Source: Candidatus Heimdallarchaeota archaeon (GTDB lineage: Archaea > Asgardarchaeota > Heimdallarchaeia > Heimdallarchaeales > Heimdallarchaeaceae). From it: 64,000 nt of DNA. Position 1 is the first letter of the stretch, and each line of letters opens with the position of its first letter. Shown here in pieces: positions 3,224 through 33,221 of the stretch. The stretch covers positions 96,001 to 160,000 of the forward strand of contig JAHLWR010000005.1 in the NCBI GenBank assembly GCA_019057815.1. The letters are read 5' to 3'. Both the position numbers and the translations under genes were made by a program. The notes beneath the pieces are model-generated. The model did no database searches, was not told the DNA's origin, and saw only the letters and a list, made by a program, of their open reading frames with translations.

Positions 3224-4258
3224 CTAATTTTTAACGTTTATTAAGTAACTCCCTCGTTCTTTTATAACTTCAATTTTAGATCTAGTTAACTTGTGTATAA
3301 GATCAATATTAGTTTTGGTGTGATTTGTAATTTTTCCTGTAAGAATACTGGAGTTTCCATCTGTTAGGGCCATTGGAACGATTAATTGATCGGCTGCATA
3401 TTCGTCTACTGTTGAATTACCTTCATAGTTTTTTTTCCATTTGTGTGCACATAGTTTTCCTACATGTTCAGAGGTTAATTTTCTATCTCCAGTAACAAAA
3501 CACCCTGTAATACCACCATTTGAGTAATGACTTATAACAGTTAATCCAGTTCCTGGGGAAAGGCTGTTTACATACTTTACTCTAGGAATTATATCTATAT
3601 TAACATTAATAGCGCTTAAAAAAGAATTAAGCTGTCTTTCAGCTACTTTTCTTTGTCTGAGAATAGATGACGCTATTGAATAAACCTTTAAACTAATTAA
3701 ATCACCTTTATCATTTAATATTAAAGGTTCTAGAGAAGTATGCTTGTGAAAAGAAAATTCGCATTTTGCTCCTCCTTTAGGATAAAAACCATATTTTCCT
3801 ATCTTTAAAGTAATTTGTTTATTCATATTGCTCAACAACGGATAGATTACACTTTCTATGTACTCAACAGATGGAGCCCATTTTCCATGTGTTGCCCCTC
3901 CATTAATAACTAACTCTATAGTCCTTGTTTGAGAAAAAGCATAGTATAAAACTGCTTGAGCTACTAAGGGAATGCTTCCCGCAGTTTTTATATTTACTTT
4001 AGCTAAATCACACTTAGCTTTTCCAGGAGAAACCTCAATTGCAGAACTACCTATCCTACAACCCTTAATTTTCATTCCAGAGAGTTGTTGAATCGCTCTA
4101 ACTGCCTCTACATGCTGTGCTTGAAGACCAGGATTTGGACGGTTAGACCTAATATTTTCTAGTTTAATAGGGGTTTTTGTTGTAGTCGCTAAAGCCAGTG
4201 CTATTCTTATTATTGACCCCCCTCCTTCGCCTATAGAACAGTCTACTCTATATATCAT
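3224..4258 (-). CDS. rtcA: RNA 3'-terminal phosphate cyclase
   Basis: GEGGGSIIR, RPNPGLQAQH, GFYPKGG, ADQLIVPMAL and the His-containing TNHTKTN motif. Confidence 0.92.
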   Translation of the reverse strand: MIYRVDCSIGEGGGSIIRIALALATTTKTPIKLENIRSNRPNPGLQAQHVEAVRAIQQLSGMKIKGCRIGSSAIEVSPGKAKCDLAKVNIKTAGSIPLVAQAVLYYAFSQTRTIELVINGGATHGKWAPSVEYIESVIYPLLSNMNKQITLKIGKYGFYPKGGAKCEFSFHKHTSLEPLILNDKGDLISLKVYSIASSILRQRKVAERQLNSFLSAINVNIDIIPRVKYVNSLSPGTGLTVISHYSNGGITGCFVTGDRKLTSEHVGKLCAHKWKKNYEGNSTVDEYAADQLIVPMALTDGNSSILTGKITNHTKTNIDLIHKLTRSKIEVIKERGSYLINVKN

Positions 4259-26933: not shown

Positions 26934-27728
26934 ATGAAGAAAATGAAGAATTTTCTACAAAATGATGAAGAGATAATAGAAGAGATATGTAAATTTATTA
27001 AAACAGAAATAGAACTTTCGAGAACAAACGGCACAATTATCGGGATTAGTGGAGGGATTGATTCAGCCTTAGTAGCCTATTTAACTGTTAAAGCTATAGG
27101 TAAAAACAAAGTCTGTTTAGTTCACCTCCCTGAAACAGCTCTAAATCCAGAACATTCACAAGATGCGGAGATTGTTGCAAAAGGACTTAGTTTACCTTTA
27201 AGAACAATTGATATCTCAACAATTTTAGAGAGTTACATTCAATTATTACCAAATCTAGAAACTAATCGACTCGCTAAAGGAAATTTGAAGGCAAGAATAA
27301 GAGCGGTTATATTCTATTCAATTGCCAATTTAGAGAATCGTTTAGTAATAGGAGCTTCAAATAAATCTGAAATTATGATAGGTTATGGAACCAAATATGG
27401 TGACTTAGCAGCTGATATATGGCCAATAGCAGACCTGTATAAAACAGAAGTAGTCAAACTTTCTAAAACACTAGGAATAAACGAGAAAATTATCCTAAAA
27501 CCGCCAACAGCAGGACTTTGGCCAGATCAAACAGACGAAGGAGAAATAGGTATTAATTACAACAAATTGGACAAATTATTGCTAGTAATAGAAAATGTTG
27601 AAATAATTGATAATATAAAAGAGAAATTACAAATAAATCAAAAGAAAATTGATCATATCAAAAACATGATTGAAAAAAGTAAACATAAACGCAAATTGCC
27701 TAATAAATTTAGCATTAAAAGAGATTAA
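26934..27728 (+). CDS. nadE: NH3-dependent NAD+ synthetase
   Basis: GISGGIDSA, GNLKARIR, NKSE...GYGTKYGD, PPTAGLWPDQTDE. Confidence 0.96.
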   Translation: MKKMKNFLQNDEEIIEEICKFIKTEIELSRTNGTIIGISGGIDSALVAYLTVKAIGKNKVCLVHLPETALNPEHSQDAEIVAKGLSLPLRTIDISTILESYIQLLPNLETNRLAKGNLKARIRAVIFYSIANLENRLVIGASNKSEIMIGYGTKYGDLAADIWPIADLYKTEVVKLSKTLGINEKIILKPPTAGLWPDQTDEGEIGINYNKLDKLLLVIENVEIIDNIKEKLQINQKKIDHIKNMIEKSKHKRKLPNKFSIKRD

Positions 27729-27917
27729 CGCTGAGGATAGAGATTCAAAAAGTTGTGTTTACATTTATCTTAATAGCAAGACGTTCGAAGGTGCGCTCAT
27801 AAACCATCAAAATCAACTGTTTTTATTGGGTTTATATATCATATTAATAATATAAATTTGAAAAAGAAAAAAAGGTGTTCACTATCGCTACTGATGTTAT
27901 CACGCGAGCATTTAATC

Positions 27918-28090
27918 TTGAATTAGTTGACATAGATCAAGAGTTCAATTACATAATCTTCAGTAAACTTTGTTCAACGCACGTTATGAAACTTGGTTAA
28001 AATTGCCAGAGGCTTTCTAACCGTCGTTTGAATGGTTCCCCTCACGTGCGTTGAGGGGAGGGAAGGATCGTGAAGATAAAGGTCTACCTT
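27918..28090 (-). ncRNA. Putative omegaRNA / right end of the large TnpB-like element
   Basis: 8-bp hairpin at 28037-28059 whose loop is complementary to 27977-27983; terminal hairpin 27918-27948 ending TTCAA on the minus strand. Confidence 0.55.
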
Positions 28091-29975
28091 GTTTTTCAGA
28101 GATGTTGAGAGCTGCATTGAAGTGAGTATTGACTTTCAGTCCACAGGCTTTGCAATAAGCATAGTCGTAATGACCAGAGTTGCGATCGAGTACTCCTCCA
28201 CAAACATTATGGAGTAGACTGGTATGGAAGGGATTAACTTGCTCTAGGTTAACATCATAACCTAGTTCTGAAGAAGCTAACCAGACAGCTTTTTCATAGA
28301 TGAAAGAGTTATCAGGCATGGTGTAAATAGCTTTAGCTAATGCACCTTTCGTACCTGTGGGATCGACGTTTAATTCCTCAATCTTCAAGACACGACTATG
28401 GTGTTTAGCTATCACTGTTGCTATAAAGAAGGGTAACCGTCGAAGAATTTCACGCAAAATCCTACTTCTGCGAGTATAGACTCTATTTAATTCCCCAATG
28501 AGTTTACAACAGCCATGAGAATCGCGTAATTTACGTTTTTCAGCTAATCCTCTATTGAGTTCTTTGAGAACTTTATCGGTTAAGAGGGTATAACGTTCTG
28601 CCAGTTTCAACAAATCTGGGGGGAGCTTAACAGGAGTGTTAAATGTCACCATAAACTCTCCCAAGCGGTTAATATCCACACCTAAAGTGGGGATATTTCC
28701 TGAGGGAATAGTAGTCATATAGTGGTGTAAGAGTGTAGTTGAGCGGAAACATTCGTGTGTTCCTTCTAAGACAACATCTACGCGAGGTTTGTAACTAGGA
28801 GCTTCACCACTGCTAACCTGCAAGATTTTAATGCTTGTTCCATTATGTAAATATTCCAAGACTTTGGGAGGGAAGAGTACACGGGCTTTAGTTTTCTTTT
28901 TTCCTCGTTGAGGGAAACCTAACTCTGTCCATCCTTGCTTTTTAACTTTTGCAGTCAATACTTTAGCATTACCCTCACGGGTAATAACAAACTCTTTTTT
29001 CATTAATAGTTTAATTGGTAGTTTTCCTTTTTTCTTTCTTTTAAATGGTTGAGGGATAACCTCTTCTGGTAGGGTAGAAAGAATTAACTGAGGGACACTC
29101 TCCATTAGATGATCAAAGAGTGCGAAAACGACTATCAACCTTACAGCTGAGAAGAGTTTTCGGTTTTTCTTACCTATAGATTCGGTTATCTGTTGAGCGA
29201 GCTTTTTGAGACTTTTCCAACGAGATTTTTGAGGGATGTTAATCCATGAAGTAACAAAAGAAGCAACTTGTTGTTTCTCTTGCACTAATAACTGCAATTT
29301 AGCTAGAAAGGACTGTTGATTAGGGGAAAGGTTGGGAATTGACGAAAACTCATGTATTTTGTGTTTATACGCGTCTTCTATAGCTAAAATAACTTCGTTA
29401 TGTGTCACAGTTGGTAATATGTGATTAAATTTCACATTGGAAGTTACGCATCTTCGCGCGAACTTTCTGTTCCAGTAGGAGTCTGTCTGTAACCTTGTAC
29501 TTGTCAAGAGGTTAATAACAAACCTTCTTCCCACTTTCCAATATTTCTGGAAACTGTGCTCAGTATAAGGTGATCGTCCGAATATTACCCATTCTAGTAA
29601 TTGTTGAGGGTTTTTCTGCCAGAAGTTGAAAATTCCTTGTATTTTCTTCTCTTTATCCACTTTTCCTTGAATGGCTATGTGTAACCAGTGGAAAGCACTT
29701 TCAGCTATATTCGGACTTTTACTCACTTCTTTGCATAATTTTCTTGTAAAGAACGTCTCTTTAGGGTTAGAACGGTAGAGTTCCAGAGCTTTTTTCACGA
29801 TTGCTGGTGTTAAGAGCTTTTTTTGCTCTTTTTCCAGCTCCTTTATACGTTGATTAATCTCTATTCTCTCTATCTTGCTCAAGTGTTCAAACGCCAACTG
29901 GTAACTTCTCATCACCTTCGCATGAGGGAGAGAGGGGTGTATTTTTGTTGTTGACTGTACTTGAGTAGACATCAT
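28017..29975 (-). CDS. Large (652 aa) TnpB/Cas12-like RuvC + zinc-finger protein
   Basis: LGVDIN (RuvC-I), LKIEEL (RuvC-II), VNPFHTS, HxxC...CKAC, NTHFNAALNI (RuvC-III-like). Confidence 0.85.
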   Translation of the reverse strand: MMSTQVQSTTKIHPSLPHAKVMRSYQLAFEHLSKIERIEINQRIKELEKEQKKLLTPAIVKKALELYRSNPKETFFTRKLCKEVSKSPNIAESAFHWLHIAIQGKVDKEKKIQGIFNFWQKNPQQLLEWVIFGRSPYTEHSFQKYWKVGRRFVINLLTSTRLQTDSYWNRKFARRCVTSNVKFNHILPTVTHNEVILAIEDAYKHKIHEFSSIPNLSPNQQSFLAKLQLLVQEKQQVASFVTSWINIPQKSRWKSLKKLAQQITESIGKKNRKLFSAVRLIVVFALFDHLMESVPQLILSTLPEEVIPQPFKRKKKGKLPIKLLMKKEFVITREGNAKVLTAKVKKQGWTELGFPQRGKKKTKARVLFPPKVLEYLHNGTSIKILQVSSGEAPSYKPRVDVVLEGTHECFRSTTLLHHYMTTIPSGNIPTLGVDINRLGEFMVTFNTPVKLPPDLLKLAERYTLLTDKVLKELNRGLAEKRKLRDSHGCCKLIGELNRVYTRRSRILREILRRLPFFIATVIAKHHSRVLKIEELNVDPTGTKGALAKAIYTMPDNSFIYEKAVWLASSELGYDVNLEQVNPFHTSLLHNVCGGVLDRNSGHYDYAYCKACGLKVNTHFNAALNISEKQGRPLSSRSFPPLNAREGNHSNDG

Positions 29976-30043
29976 TCACTCAGTAATGTTATGTTTAAAT
30001 TAATATATAAACTACATAAAAAAACAGCTATTTTCCTTCTTTG

Positions 30044-30172
30044 TTATTTTCCTCTCCATTGTCTATGTAATCTCCCTGCAAATGAAGAGGCTAAAGCTAT
30101 CATGTCTTCCACCAATTTTCCTTCAGTTGATTGGTTTAATAGCTGATGTATAGCTACAAGTTTAGTGTTTTG
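30044..30172 (-). pseudogene. C-terminal remnant of an IS607-family serine recombinase TnpA
   Basis: Translates as NTKLVAIHQLLNQSTEGKLVEDMIALASSFAGRLHRQWRGK*, matching the ELVEDLxxIxxSFxGRLY tail of IS607 TnpA; no start codon or catalytic domain. Confidence 0.75.
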
Positions 30173-30197
30173 TTATGCTTTCATAATATGAGAAATG

Positions 30198-30650
30198 TTA
30201 ATAATAAATATGCTTGATTAATTCCTTGAACTGTCGCATATCATCAAAAAAATCATGGAAAAGTGTTCTGGTAGCTTTATCTATATACGGTCGGTATTTA
30301 AGTAATTTTTCATCTAACGCCCAATAACTCTTATCAAGTGTAGAAAGAGCTTCTAGTAATTTAATGTTGTTTTGTTCTTGTAAAGAATTATTCACATTTT
30401 CAATTTCCTCAATAATAGTATTAAGATGGTTGACAATATAAGAGGAAAGCATAGAATCATTTTTAATTAAATGAGTAACGATGTCGTTTGCCGTACTAAT
30501 AAGTTGTTCTCGATACACTTGAACAAAATCGCGATAAAATGTTGCAGTATCAGCATCAAATGTTTGAAGCTTATAAGGTACTTCAGTTAAAATTTCAACA
30601 AACATATTAAAATTATTCAACATATAAGATGAATCAATATTCAATGTCAT
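30198..30650 (-). CDS. Uncharacterised ~150-aa helical protein ('domain X', distant member)
   Basis: FYRDFVQVYREQLISTANDIVTHL aligns with FYFSLLQINQEELETDAHNISKQL of 41415-41870. Confidence 0.65.
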   Translation of the reverse strand: MTLNIDSSYMLNNFNMFVEILTEVPYKLQTFDADTATFYRDFVQVYREQLISTANDIVTHLIKNDSMLSSYIVNHLNTIIEEIENVNNSLQEQNNIKLLEALSTLDKSYWALDEKLLKYRPYIDKATRTLFHDFFDDMRQFKELIKHIYY

Positions 30651-30859
30651 TATTTAACCTTCTAATCTTTTCTATCTTAGAATCAATGAATGTTTAGCTT
30701 TAAAGGTTAGTATGCCTATCGTAGTACAAAAAAAAACAATTTCGTAGTACATTCTATAGACTCTTTTTTTTGTACAAGGATAGAAAAAAGCTTTAAAAGA
30801 AGAACGGGAGAAGAGAATACTTACAGTCAAGAGTATTACGGGGGCTTAAATAGGAATAT

Positions 30860-32113
30860 TTGAATATAATAATGATGTATCGAGTACAACAAAACCATCT
30901 CAGAGCTTTATCGAAAGAAGAGTACTGGATACTGAAAAAACTTACACGATGCTCAAAGAACGTTTACAACCACACTTTGTGGTTGATAAAAAGAGAGTGG
31001 GAGACAAACAAAACTTTTCTTTCTTACAACAAAGTATATCTTAATATCAAGACTTATGAGTATTACCAACGTCTCCCTACTCAAATAGCTCAACAAACAG
31101 CTAGAAGAGCTGAACAAGCCTACAAATCCTTTTTCAGCTTAATGAAAGTTAAAGAACAGGGAAAATATACTGAACGGGTCAAAGAACCATGGTACTTACC
31201 AAAAGAAGGATGCTTTCTACTCTCCTTCACTCCTGATTATTTTAAAGTGCAAGGAAAAACAATTAGACTCTCACTTGGAAGGTGGATAACAAAAAATCTT
31301 AATAAACGATTCTTGAGATTTAGCTTCCCTTACCATCTCAGAGGGGAAGAAGTGAAAGAAGTTAGAATTCTTCCACGCAATTATGGGATGTATTTCGAAA
31401 TAGAGTTTGTTTATTATAAGGAGAAAGAAAGCCTCGACATTGATGTCACCAAATATCTGGGAATTGACCTAGGATTAGATAATTTTGCAACAACAGTTGA
31501 CACTGACGGGACAGCCTTCATAATCGAAGGACGTGGAATAAAATCTTTTAACCGTTGGTGGAATAAGAAGAAAGCAAAATTACAAAAGAAGTATGATAAG
31601 CAAGGGATCAAAACTGGCACTAAAATGATGAAGTTGGAAAGAAAGAGAAGGTATTATTTGCGCAACTTCATGTCTCAAGCAGTAAATGAAATAATCAAAC
31701 ATTGTAAAACAAACAATATTGGCACCATAGTTGTTGGGGAAATGAAAAATATTAAAAAGAATTGTAAGTTGGGTAAGAGAACTACACAGAATTTCCATTA
31801 TATAACCTACGGTTTATTCAAGCATAAATTGCGAACAAAAAGTGAATTTCATGGAATCGATTATAAGGAAGTTGATGAAGCCTACACCTCTCAAACCTGT
31901 TCTCAATGTGGTCTGAGACGAAAAGCCAATCGTAAATATCGAGGGTTGTATGTCTGCAAAAACTGTGGAACAGTCTTGAATGCAGATGTTAATGGTGCAT
32001 TAAATATCCTCAAGAAAGTAGCCCCTGAGTCTTCCCTTGTGAAGATAGGGGGTAGTGGTCGTCTGAGTCGACCTTCACGTCGCTCTGTTGTTCCTCAACA
32101 TAGTTACGTTTAA
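30860..32113 (+). mobile_element. tnpB: Intact TnpB (IS200/IS605 or IS607 OrfB, no adjacent intact TnpA)
   Basis: LGIDLG, IVVGE, EAYTSQTCSQC, CKNC, NADVNGALNI. Confidence 0.92.
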
Positions 32114-32150
32114 ACCAAAATAAGTCTTTTTACAAAGAACTTAGCTCATA

Positions 32151-33221
32151 TTAGAATGATCGCGAGAGTTCTTTACTTATATCAGTGAGTATATCTTCTG
32201 TAAAATAACTTAAAATGAATTCTGCACGTTCTCGTATAGTAAATTCTGCTACACCTGTAGCCCTTGCAACCATTTTTTGGGTTAAAGCTGAAGAACTGTT
32301 AAAAAGAGGTTTACAAAGATTTTTATCTATTACGTACGCTGTAGCAGCTGCAAAACAAAGGGCATTCTTACCACCCCGTTGGCGAAAGGTTATTCTAGCC
32401 AGCAACTTAAGTGATGCAAGGAACAGAATTTTTTCATAAACAAAGATATCTAAACGATATTTTCTTTGAATTCGCTCATTTATTGGGGGATGGGAACAAA
32501 TTTCAGAGCACATTCTTGCAAGATAATCTTCACTTCTACGAATACAAATTGTAGGTGATTTAACATCAAGTTTTATCATTAATTTGGAGAGATTAGTTCC
32601 TAAAACTCTATGTCCCAACCCCCTGTAAGTTTCGACAATCTCTTTAAGAGTTATGGGACAGTTGTGTTTTTCTTCTCTTACTGCAAGTAATAAACATAAT
32701 GCTGATAATAAAACATGATTCGAGACCTTATCTTTATGTATTTTTTTGTAACTATGATAGAGATAACAAGCTCTATTACGAGTATTATTTTTAATTTTTA
32801 AACACGAAAAAACCTTATCCATAATTTTAAGTGTTCTATAATCTGTTTCTTTTCCCTTTACTGCACTTGAAATATGATAGAAATTTTTGAGTTTTCGAAA
32901 TTTAGCTTGACTATGGTCATCAATTAGTGATCCTTGAGCATCTCTGAATATATACTCCTCAACCGCACCGATAGACGAACCTAATGAACTTACAACTGAC
33001 AATTGATTATTAACTGAAGTATATTGTTGCTTTTTACGCTGTTCTTTTGAAGTAACAGTACCTAGCTGAAAAGAAGAATTTTCAATAACAGGTGCATGGA
33101 CAAGACCACAGCTTTGACAGATACATAACCCGTTTTGTTCTATGATTCTGCCATCACATTCATCACATCTTTGCTCTACATGATCACTGTGTTTACTGTT
33201 CAATGTATCTCCCCCCAACAT
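32151..33221 (-). CDS. tfb: TFB family protein, copy 2 (close paralog of 14008-15039)
   Basis: Shared blocks such as KKQQYTS.NNQL.VVSSLGSSIGAVEEY.FRDAQGSLI and NHVLLSALCLLLAVRE. Confidence 0.85.
   Translation of the reverse strand: MLGGDTLNSKHSDHVEQRCDECDGRIIEQNGLCICQSCGLVHAPVIENSSFQLGTVTSKEQRKKQQYTSVNNQLSVVSSLGSSIGAVEEYIFRDAQGSLIDDHSQAKFRKLKNFYHISSAVKGKETDYRTLKIMDKVFSCLKIKNNTRNRACYLYHSYKKIHKDKVSNHVLLSALCLLLAVREEKHNCPITLKEIVETYRGLGHRVLGTNLSKLMIKLDVKSPTICIRRSEDYLARMCSEICSHPPINERIQRKYRLDIFVYEKILFLASLKLLARITFRQRGGKNALCFAAATAYVIDKNLCKPLFNSSSALTQKMVARATGVAEFTIRERAEFILSYFTEDILTDISKELSRSF

Follow-up and report, generated by a model that had tools for sequence, protein, structure and literature searches.

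A conserved histidine replaces the RuvC-III aspartate in a large TnpB-like protein of an Asgard archaeal IS607-type transposon

A 64,000-nt stretch of Candidatus Heimdallarchaeota archaeon DNA (assembly GCA_019057815.1, contig JAHLWR010000005.1, positions 96,001 to 160,000 of the forward strand; hereafter the window, whose numbering is used unless another contig is named) carries a gene for an oversized TnpB-like protein, referred to below as the large TnpB. Our analysis indicates that this protein is most likely the RNA-guided effector of a transposon of the IS607 family that is confined to Asgard archaea, chiefly Heimdall ones. As suggested by sequence comparison, it probably works as an RNA-guided nuclease with a D-E-His catalytic centre, serving the transposon via homing or via retention at the element-free site. 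The reading frame starts with an ATG at 29975 on the minus strand, ends with the stop codon TAG at 28019-28017 and encodes 652 aa with no internal stop. The original prediction, made from the sequence alone, had correctly described an intact 652-aa frame but missed that it lies on the minus strand. The motifs it had listed (GVDIN, KIEEL, YTMPDN, HxxC/CxxC and NTHFNAALNI) are all present, and the excess over the ordinary TnpB encoded from 30860, which it had put at about 250 aa, is 235 aa, the neighbour being 417 aa long. The features of the gene are as follows.

28017..29975, minus strand: large TnpB-like gene (open reading frame and translation, Pfam/NCBIfam matches, AlphaFold2 model, Foldseek/VIA matches)
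28674..28676, minus strand: codon of the RuvC-I Asp, D434 (GVDIN), invariant in 95 sequences, at the end of strand 430-435
28377..28379, minus strand: codon of the RuvC-II Glu, E533 (KIEEL), invariant or nearly so
28122..28124, minus strand: codon of H618 (NTHFNAALNI), at the RuvC-III Asp position by alignment and conservation, at the N-terminus of helix 617-627
28311..28313, minus strand: codon of D555 (YTMPDN), in the loop after the helix following RuvC-II, not strictly conserved
28143..28211, minus strand: zinc-ribbon ligands H589, C592, C608 and C611 (HxxC...CxxC) with the conserved D604 (conservation; Pfam Cas12f1-like_TNB)
30000..30011, minus strand: putative TATA-like promoter element TTTATATATTAA, 25-36 nt before the ATG, conserved in three paralogues

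The TATA box that had been proposed for the gene is thus represented by the element at 30011-30000, which is also reused in the miniature derivatives described below. No CRISPR-like tandem array was found in 15000-43000, in agreement with the earlier statement that none is nearby. The open reading frame (ORF) is not a product of chance, as its homologues are numerous and the ratio of nonsynonymous to synonymous substitution rates (dN/dS) is low. A collection of 5.8 billion proteins contained 135 homologues, with 42-91% identity among the matches listed (120 of 135), and the family comprises 153 cluster representatives at 50% identity. All named sources are Asgard archaea (Heimdallarchaeota, Hodarchaeales and Odinarchaeota); no eukaryotic or phage homologues were found in the protein collections, and phage records gave no protein match. 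Family databases recognized the protein in part: in Pfam the Cas12f1-like_TNB zinc ribbon alone was matched (residues 573-625, 28.6 bits, above its cut-off), and the NCBIfam models guided_TnpB (residues 430-627, 25 bits, cut-off 100) and IS607_TnpB (17.9 bits, cut-off 350) scored low.

The canonical D-E-D triad of the TnpB/Cas12 superfamily is not found in the large TnpB, in which D434 and E533 are followed by H618 as the third residue throughout the family. In the alignment with Cas12f chains H618 falls on the RuvC-III Asp (family profile 'kvnThinaakNia' on 'KVNADYNAARNIA' of CnCas12f1, 8hr5), and hhalign against the ordinary TnpB at 30860-32113 placed 'VNTHFNAALNI' on 'LNADVNGALNI', again with H618 on the Asp. 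Close family members all carry this residue; of 51 relatives reaching down to 20% identity ~47 have it, and most of the others have Gln. A motif count over the fetched relatives (217) gave H in 211, D in 4 and Q in 2, so that the histidine, which the original prediction had considered might prove to be a private mutation, is a trait of the clade and, on these comparisons, an old conserved one. Among 57 nucleotide copies the His618 codon is CAT in 29 and CAC in 28; this equal use indicates that selection acts on the amino acid. The zinc ligands H589, C592, C608 and C611 are conserved as well and differ from a C4 finger in the first ligand alone, changed from Cys to His. The alignments, together with the modelled secondary structure, suggest that H618 adjoins D434 and E533 in the catalytic centre.

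Structure prediction supported the assignment to the TnpB lineage, in accordance with the earlier reading of the sequence. The AlphaFold2 model, built on an alignment of 95 relatives, reached a mean predicted local distance difference test score (pLDDT) of 90.4 and a predicted template modelling score (pTM) of 0.85. It consists of a WED strand (21-29), an all-helical REC region (34-306), a beta-rich WED part (321-405), RuvC (430-580), an HCCC zinc ribbon (585-616) and the RuvC-III helix (617-627), which starts with H618; D434 and E533 lie at strand ends of the RuvC fold. The model thus shows what characterizes the TnpB/Cas12 superfamily, a bilobed WED-REC-RuvC architecture in which RuvC is split and a zinc-ribbon TNB is inserted. 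The top Foldseek matches were all Cas12f, TnpB or other Cas12 chains, with probability 1.0. By VIA-align the model was superposed on ISFba1 TnpB (8iaz; Z 13.8, 344 residues, model 21-633 on chain 4-387), AsCas12f (8dzj; Z 12.9, 355 residues), ISDra2 TnpB (8h1j; Z 11.8, 339 residues) and Fanzor2 (9b0l; Z 11.8, 349 residues). As modelled, the large TnpB is a TnpB core with ~270 extra residues that form mostly a helical REC region, and the expanded REC lobe proposed earlier corresponds to the helical part at ~34-306. Folded alone, REC residues 30-312 gave a pLDDT of 93. Among 48,161 chains no convincing solved relative of this domain was found, the best match (Z 7.4 over 86 residues) lying in the noise range for helical domains.

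The genomic surroundings of the copies place the family in an IS607-type transposon. Four intact copies of the large TnpB are present in the host genome (G000), with 100, 92, 88 and 42% identity to the window protein, the last being locus L004. The three close copies share a unit that reaches from 27977 to ~30147-30169 in the window, with a sharp 3' and a ragged 5' boundary, and the 5' part they have in common codes for the C-terminal end of a serine recombinase. Paralogue L002 carries a full tnpA upstream, whose product matches Resolvase (6e-20) and possesses a MerR helix-turn-helix (HTH). A full tnpA stands directly upstream in ~17 of 79 related loci from Heimdall genomes, and many others retain N- or C-terminal remnants; the relatives' genomes contain many copies each, and contigs break at the copies. 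The arrangement known from IS607, with a MerR-HTH serine-recombinase TnpA upstream of tnpB and co-oriented with it, is thus found in this element family.

Mobility of the family is shown directly by empty and occupied sites. In three genomes (the sister genome G001, G003 and G010) the locus corresponding to L002 is a precise empty site, without the element. The empty site reads ...TATACCGT/AATGG..., with the slash at the insertion point, and the occupied site reads ...TATACCGT[ CGTCCACTG......AACGTGCGT ]AATGG..., with the element in brackets. The two differ by an element of ~2.73 kb with a 3-nt CGT ambiguity only, i.e., the family behaves as a discrete mobile unit without a long target duplication, as IS607 elements do. 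The left junction is ACYGT in 13 of 13 complete elements and 6 of 6 mini-elements. In the ten complete elements with a readable right end the Y of this junction equals the Y of the right-end GTGYGT, and all six mini-elements combine ACCGT with GTGCGT. The match between the ends fits the crossover core of a serine recombinase. ACYGT is also the candidate target-adjacent motif (TAM), deduced from the left junctions and one empty site; its bases at -5 and -4 are not those of the right end. Complete elements are ordered as left end, MerR-HTH/resolvase TnpA, TATA promoter, 650-aa TnpB and a right end that would double as the guide-RNA scaffold.

Conservation over the final ~85 nt of the element greatly exceeds that of its coding sequence. 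Three copies that differ by 8-14% in their ORFs have the same 41 nt past the stop codon, without a single change. The right-end block is also near-constant in 57 copies with ~60% protein identity to the window copy, where it reads ...CCCCTCAaCGCACGTGAGGGG...AAACGACGGTTA...GGCAAGTTTAACCAAGTTTCATAACGTGYGT; since the stop codon takes three different positions inside this block, the conservation is independent of the reading frame. Synonymous divergence (dS) is also reduced in the C-terminal tail of the gene, at 0.18-0.29 compared with ~0.5 elsewhere. Immediately after ...GYGT the flanks of the copies diverge, which gives a sharp element end at 27977. The following features were assigned to this region.

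27977..28058, minus strand: predicted omegaRNA-like right-end module (conservation across copies and covariation)
28058-28038, minus strand: predicted hairpin 1
28050-28044 with 27984-27978, minus strand: predicted pseudoknot arms
within 28022-27995, minus strand: predicted stem B, GGTTA/TAACC
27957..27976, minus strand: candidate guide segment, the flank directly past the right end (copies diverge here; analogy with TnpB systems)
27860..27875, minus strand: T-tract read from the sequence, possible transcript end ~100 nt past the right end

Hairpin 1 carries in its loop the sequence CGCACGT (28050-28044), which can pair with ACGTGCG (27984-27978), the final bases of the scaffold. In the 57-copy alignment 95.6% of cells are paired over the hairpin, pseudoknot and third stem taken together, compared with 25-48% in slid controls, and 18 cells carry compensatory double changes, a number reached in 0 of 500 shuffles. 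Examples from the pseudoknot are one pair that is CG in 49, UA in 5 and AU in 1 copies and another that is GC in 41, AU in 9 and GU in 6. G-U pairs are tolerated and A-C mismatches are rare in these stems, which favours RNA pairing over a DNA repeat. By analogy, the module would have the usual TnpB omegaRNA layout, with the scaffold over the 3' end of the gene, the pseudoknot before the guide and the guide outside the element. Rfam gave no match in 27500-32600.

For the window copy, no second match to the 20-mer of its flank was found in the host genome beyond chance. Elsewhere in the family, 8 of 71 loci (including L004, L015, L032, L055, L060, L061 and L065) contain the flank 16-mer a second time close by and in the same orientation, where ~1 would be expected. 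In L004 (G000 C22) the 15-mer guide-like flank at 3425-3444 is accompanied by a second copy at 3578-3597, preceded by AAGCTT and located ~40 nt upstream of the next gene's start codon; both are conserved in the orthologue L073 (L073/L112) despite a dS of 1.46. L015 contains a perfect guide match 535 nt downstream, preceded by ATCGT, in a 68-nt exact duplicate inside an intact gene of the metallo-beta-lactamase (MBL) fold. The recurring 16-mers could be cis guide-target pairs, or duplications of the target or of a tRNA. A divergent subfamily (~40-50% identity; L070, L071, L075, L076, L116-L125, L136, L139 and L140) is often located beside a tRNA gene. Its right end and flank read TATGCGA/CGCATA.. 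or CATGCGA/TGCATG.., a palindrome that co-varies across the junction (slash), and ~20 nt of its apparent flank are conserved in ten genomes, so that the true end or the guide may be defined differently in this subfamily.

Mini-elements of 356-374 bp, which we regard as miniature inverted-repeat transposable elements (MITEs) derived from the same family, occur in the host genome and its relatives. They combine the left end (~45 nt) with a duplicate of the segment that holds the tnpB promoter and its TATA box, a structured segment of 136 nt that full elements lack, and the right-end RNA block. For eight mini-elements a consensus fold of 61 pairs was obtained, in which five pairs show compensatory changes. 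At least 8 right-end blocks of the mini type were counted in the host genome, and the located elements are listed here.

G000 C8:42394-42767, C1:35384-35757, C20:11813-12187 and C27:57825-58204: mini-elements L097-L100
63422-63570 of the window: mini-element fragment, with a full copy just beyond the window end (C12:160783-161020)

From their composition, the mini-elements look like promoter-driven, stand-alone guide-RNA satellites of the large TnpB. In paralogue L003 (G000 C21) the MITE-specific 136-nt segment is fused upstream of a tnpA remnant, ~220-350 nt upstream of the ORF, forming a chimera of mini- and full element.

The window copy itself is, as judged by comparison with full copies, a 5'-truncated, non-autonomous derivative that keeps the promoter, the intact gene and the whole right-end module. 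Its homology to full copies begins at 30169, and one further feature belongs to it.

30044..30172, minus strand: remnant of an IS607-type serine-recombinase tnpA, last ~42 codons (tblastn, genome search, reading frame)

In this remnant tblastn of L002 TnpA matched residues 135-170 and the genome search matched residues 150-193. The left-end motif is absent throughout the window; its loss and the reduction of tnpA to a remnant are the grounds for regarding the copy as non-autonomous. In the sister genome, contig L006 carries the copy at the same locus with the same truncation. The sole cognate tnpA of the host genome (L002 ~830-1411, G000 C27:145925-146500) has a TGA at codon 11 (GAA TGA TGG), where two relatives have TGG; given this codon, the large TnpB family in the host genome may be without a working transposase.

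Selection on the protein was evident across the family. The dN/dS between paralogues is 0.13-0.17 in all protein regions, it is 0.11-0.15 in five pairs from divergent subfamilies, and it is 0.14 relative to the syntenic copy L006. Some observations point to exchange between copies. The stretch 28231-28530 is 99-100% identical to L002, with neighbouring blocks at 83-93%; and the identity of the element to L006 is mosaic (77-98%), with a dS of 0.39 as against 0.12 for the adjacent 150-aa gene. The mosaic identity and the raised dS indicate gene conversion between dispersed copies. The low dN/dS is thus best read as a mark of selection on the family and not necessarily on the immobile window copy. 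The value of 0.14 against L006 was not relied upon as a sign of purifying selection in situ, in view of the dS of 0.39 versus 0.12 and the mosaic identity.

Taken as a nuclease of the transposon, the large TnpB would operate as follows. The 3' part of the transcript would fold into the hairpin, pseudoknot and stem ending at 27977 and run on into ~16-20 nt of flank, which would serve as the guide. The ribonucleoprotein would recognize a short 5' motif, presumably ACYGT, beside a sequence matching the guide, i.e., the element-free version of its own insertion site. The cut would then be made by a His-containing two-metal RuvC site (D434, E533, H618), favouring copying or retention of the element. 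We infer the expression of the RNA, the use of the guide, the TAM and above all the cleavage competence of the D-E-H centre. Activity is favoured by the conservation of D434, E533 and H618, which is as strict as for catalytic residues, by the mobility of the family and by the like judgement passed on Asp-to-His clades in PMC10691335, with the D-E-D-H centre of Argonaute as an analogy.

Several points weigh against a cutting enzyme. A histidine in place of a metal-binding aspartate could weaken or abolish cleavage. The perfect guide match left uncut in an intact gene at L015 is awkward for a self-guided nuclease unless ATCGT is an invalid TAM, and the recurrence of the flank 16-mer, together with the conserved L004/L073 pair, does not sit easily with such an enzyme. 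The window copy is probably immobile now, having no left end and, as the only tnpA available, one with a TGA at codon 11. Finally, its apparent purifying selection in situ is blurred by gene conversion between the copies.

Several of these points would suit a non-cleaving RNA-guided DNA binder, domesticated or on the way to being so, that acts as a regulator or targeting factor in the manner of TldR or Cas12k. The loss of a metal-ligand Asp to His would fit such a protein, and the window copy is immobilized at the same locus in the sister genome and still intact. The excess of 16-mer recurrences on the same strand, the persistence of the L004/L073 pair just upstream of the next gene and the retained match in L015 all agree with binding rather than cutting. 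However, exapted dead TnpBs have lost catalytic residues (PMC10691335), while D434 and E533 are invariant in this family, which moreover is demonstrably mobile and spawns MITEs. The recurrences and the L015 match concern other copies, the guide of the window copy being without a second target in its genome. The recurring 16-mers may also stem from duplications at tRNAs or further target sites, or divergent subfamilies may have had their right-end boundary placed wrongly. The invariance of D434 and E533 and the mobility of the element family lead us to consider a binder less likely than a nuclease, with roughly one chance in five. A further reading, somewhat less probable than the binder, is that the D-E-His centre has a different activity, such as that of a Mn-dependent nuclease, a nickase or binding only, and that some immobilized copies are already cis-acting RNA-guided regulators, for which L004/L073 would be the best candidate.

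A rearranged active site, in which the third carboxylate is supplied by D555 of the MPD motif or by D604 and H618 is structural, appears improbable. Rearranged RuvC domains are documented in other TnpB clades (PMC10691335), D555 is placed in the loop behind the helix next to RuvC-II, and D604 of the zinc ribbon is at least 90% conserved. Yet D555, which the original prediction had put forward as the substitute, gives way to K, S, Y, N or Q in ~9 of the 51 relatives, which keep the nearly invariant H618, and these alignments make it a poor candidate for the third carboxylate. D604 is aligned with a variable position of the Cas12f chains, and H618 occupies the canonical position itself and surpasses both Asp residues in conservation. 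A decaying pseudogene or a mutation private to a single copy is ruled out by the family-wide conservation, since the lost transposase and left end, and the internal stop in ~1/6 of the relatives from an order-wide search, stand against an intact 652-aa frame, His in nearly all relatives, the low dN/dS between paralogues and a conserved promoter and RNA module.

With the nuclease retained as the favoured reading, the large TnpB can be compared with systems described previously. Six large branches of TnpB with an altered RuvC-III have been reported (Altae-Tran et al. 2023, PMC10691335). The largest of them, RIIIr-4, which includes archaeal MazE/ribbon-helix-helix (RHH)-TnpB, shows an Asp-to-His change and has lost the C4 zinc finger, and Ser-6 and RIIIr-6 are restricted to archaea (PMC10691335). 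Clades with a conserved Asp-to-His RuvC-III were judged likely active, from conservation alone (PMC10691335). The large TnpB, which was compared with RIIIr-4, Ser-6 and RIIIr-6 by their published description, resembles them in its histidine at the RuvC-III Asp position and in its archaeal source. It differs from RIIIr-4 in keeping an HCCC ribbon, a serine-recombinase partner and a length of ~650 aa, whereas RIIIr-4 is without the C4 finger and partly paired with RHH/MazE. The original prediction had allowed that the clade might already be characterized; this holds in so far as Asp-to-His RuvC-III clades have been catalogued computationally (PMC10691335), while in the literature on TnpB (Heimdallarchaeota, Asgard, IS607, histidine) we found neither a biochemical test of an Asp-to-His TnpB nor a specific study of the Asgard large TnpB family, the only other paper to come up being a survey of insertion sequences that does not deal with this family in particular.

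The likeness to IS607 elements of the obligate mobile element-guided activity (OMEGA) type extends to the tnpA-tnpB order, the MerR-HTH/resolvase TnpA, insertion without target duplication beyond a 3-nt ambiguity and, as predicted, an RNA scaffold located 3' whose candidate guide lies beyond the right end. The large TnpB differs from them in its D-E-H triad, a REC region ~270 aa larger, low NCBIfam scores and an occurrence in Asgard archaea only among named sources. Solved TnpB and Cas12f structures (ISFba1 TnpB 8iaz, ISDra2 TnpB 8h1j/8exa, AsCas12f 8dzj, CnCas12f1 8hr5) share the order WED-REC-WED-RuvC-TNB-RuvC and were superposed over 320-357 residues with Z 10-14, but at ~13-16% identity, and they have a D-E-D site and a CCCC ribbon. 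In contrast to TldR-like dead TnpBs, which have lost RuvC catalytic residues and are often truncated C-terminally, the large TnpB keeps D434, E533, the RuvC-III helix and the zinc ribbon, and its window copy is without a fixed guide matching a host promoter, a possible pair being found only for the 42%-identical paralogue L004. A histidine in a metal-ligand position is known from the PIWI domain of Argonaute, an RNase-H-fold enzyme with an active D-E-D-H centre. Argonaute belongs to another family and has another topology, and is an analogy for the chemistry only. Fanzor2 of mimivirus (9b0l) has the TnpB fold but ranks below bacterial TnpB and Cas12f, and the large TnpB has no special affinity to it. 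Fanzor2 has been described as a eukaryote/virus derivative of TnpB with IS607 ancestry (PMC10691335).

Both Cas12 and Fanzor descend from TnpB, which is also a source of compact genome editors. The Asgard lineage described here is well delimited and is distinguished by a histidine in the metal-binding triad, an H-C-C-C ribbon and a large REC lobe without a clear solved relative. With the ends of the element, a candidate TAM, the predicted pseudoknotted RNA scaffold and naturally occurring mini-elements all mapped, the activity of the D-E-H centre is directly testable with one protein-RNA pair. Current views are not overturned, as Asp-to-His TnpB clades were catalogued before (PMC10691335) and no special link to Fanzor emerged; the system is well-mapped and testable rather than surprising.

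Giant relatives were encountered in Odinarchaeota/Hodarchaeales, namely P0187 (1669 aa), P0191 (1784 aa), P0163/P0286 (1327/1344 aa), P0157 and P0185. They close with a related RuvC/zinc-ribbon module in which the His is retained, as VNTHxNAA/VNTHxSAA in four and as NIH/NSH in P0157 and P0185. Two of the giant relatives gave sub-threshold MazE/AbrB matches near residue 650-700, a weak point of likeness to the MazE/RHH-TnpB of RIIIr-4.

Directly upstream of the truncated element lies a 150-aa ORF (30198-30650, minus strand) that matches no Pfam or NCBIfam family. In the sister genome 93 nt of the 3' end of this gene are joined to the element copy at L008, which indicates that this copy arose by a duplication reaching beyond the element. 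The ordinary 417-aa TnpB (30860-32113, plus strand) is located inside a 1389-bp solo element (window 30759-32147), which is absent from L006. The empty site there reads ...CATTATATA/TTAGAATG..., the slash again marking the insertion point, with a 3-nt ATA ambiguity only, and the 1389-bp element is a recent insertion of a second, canonical TnpB element beside the large one.

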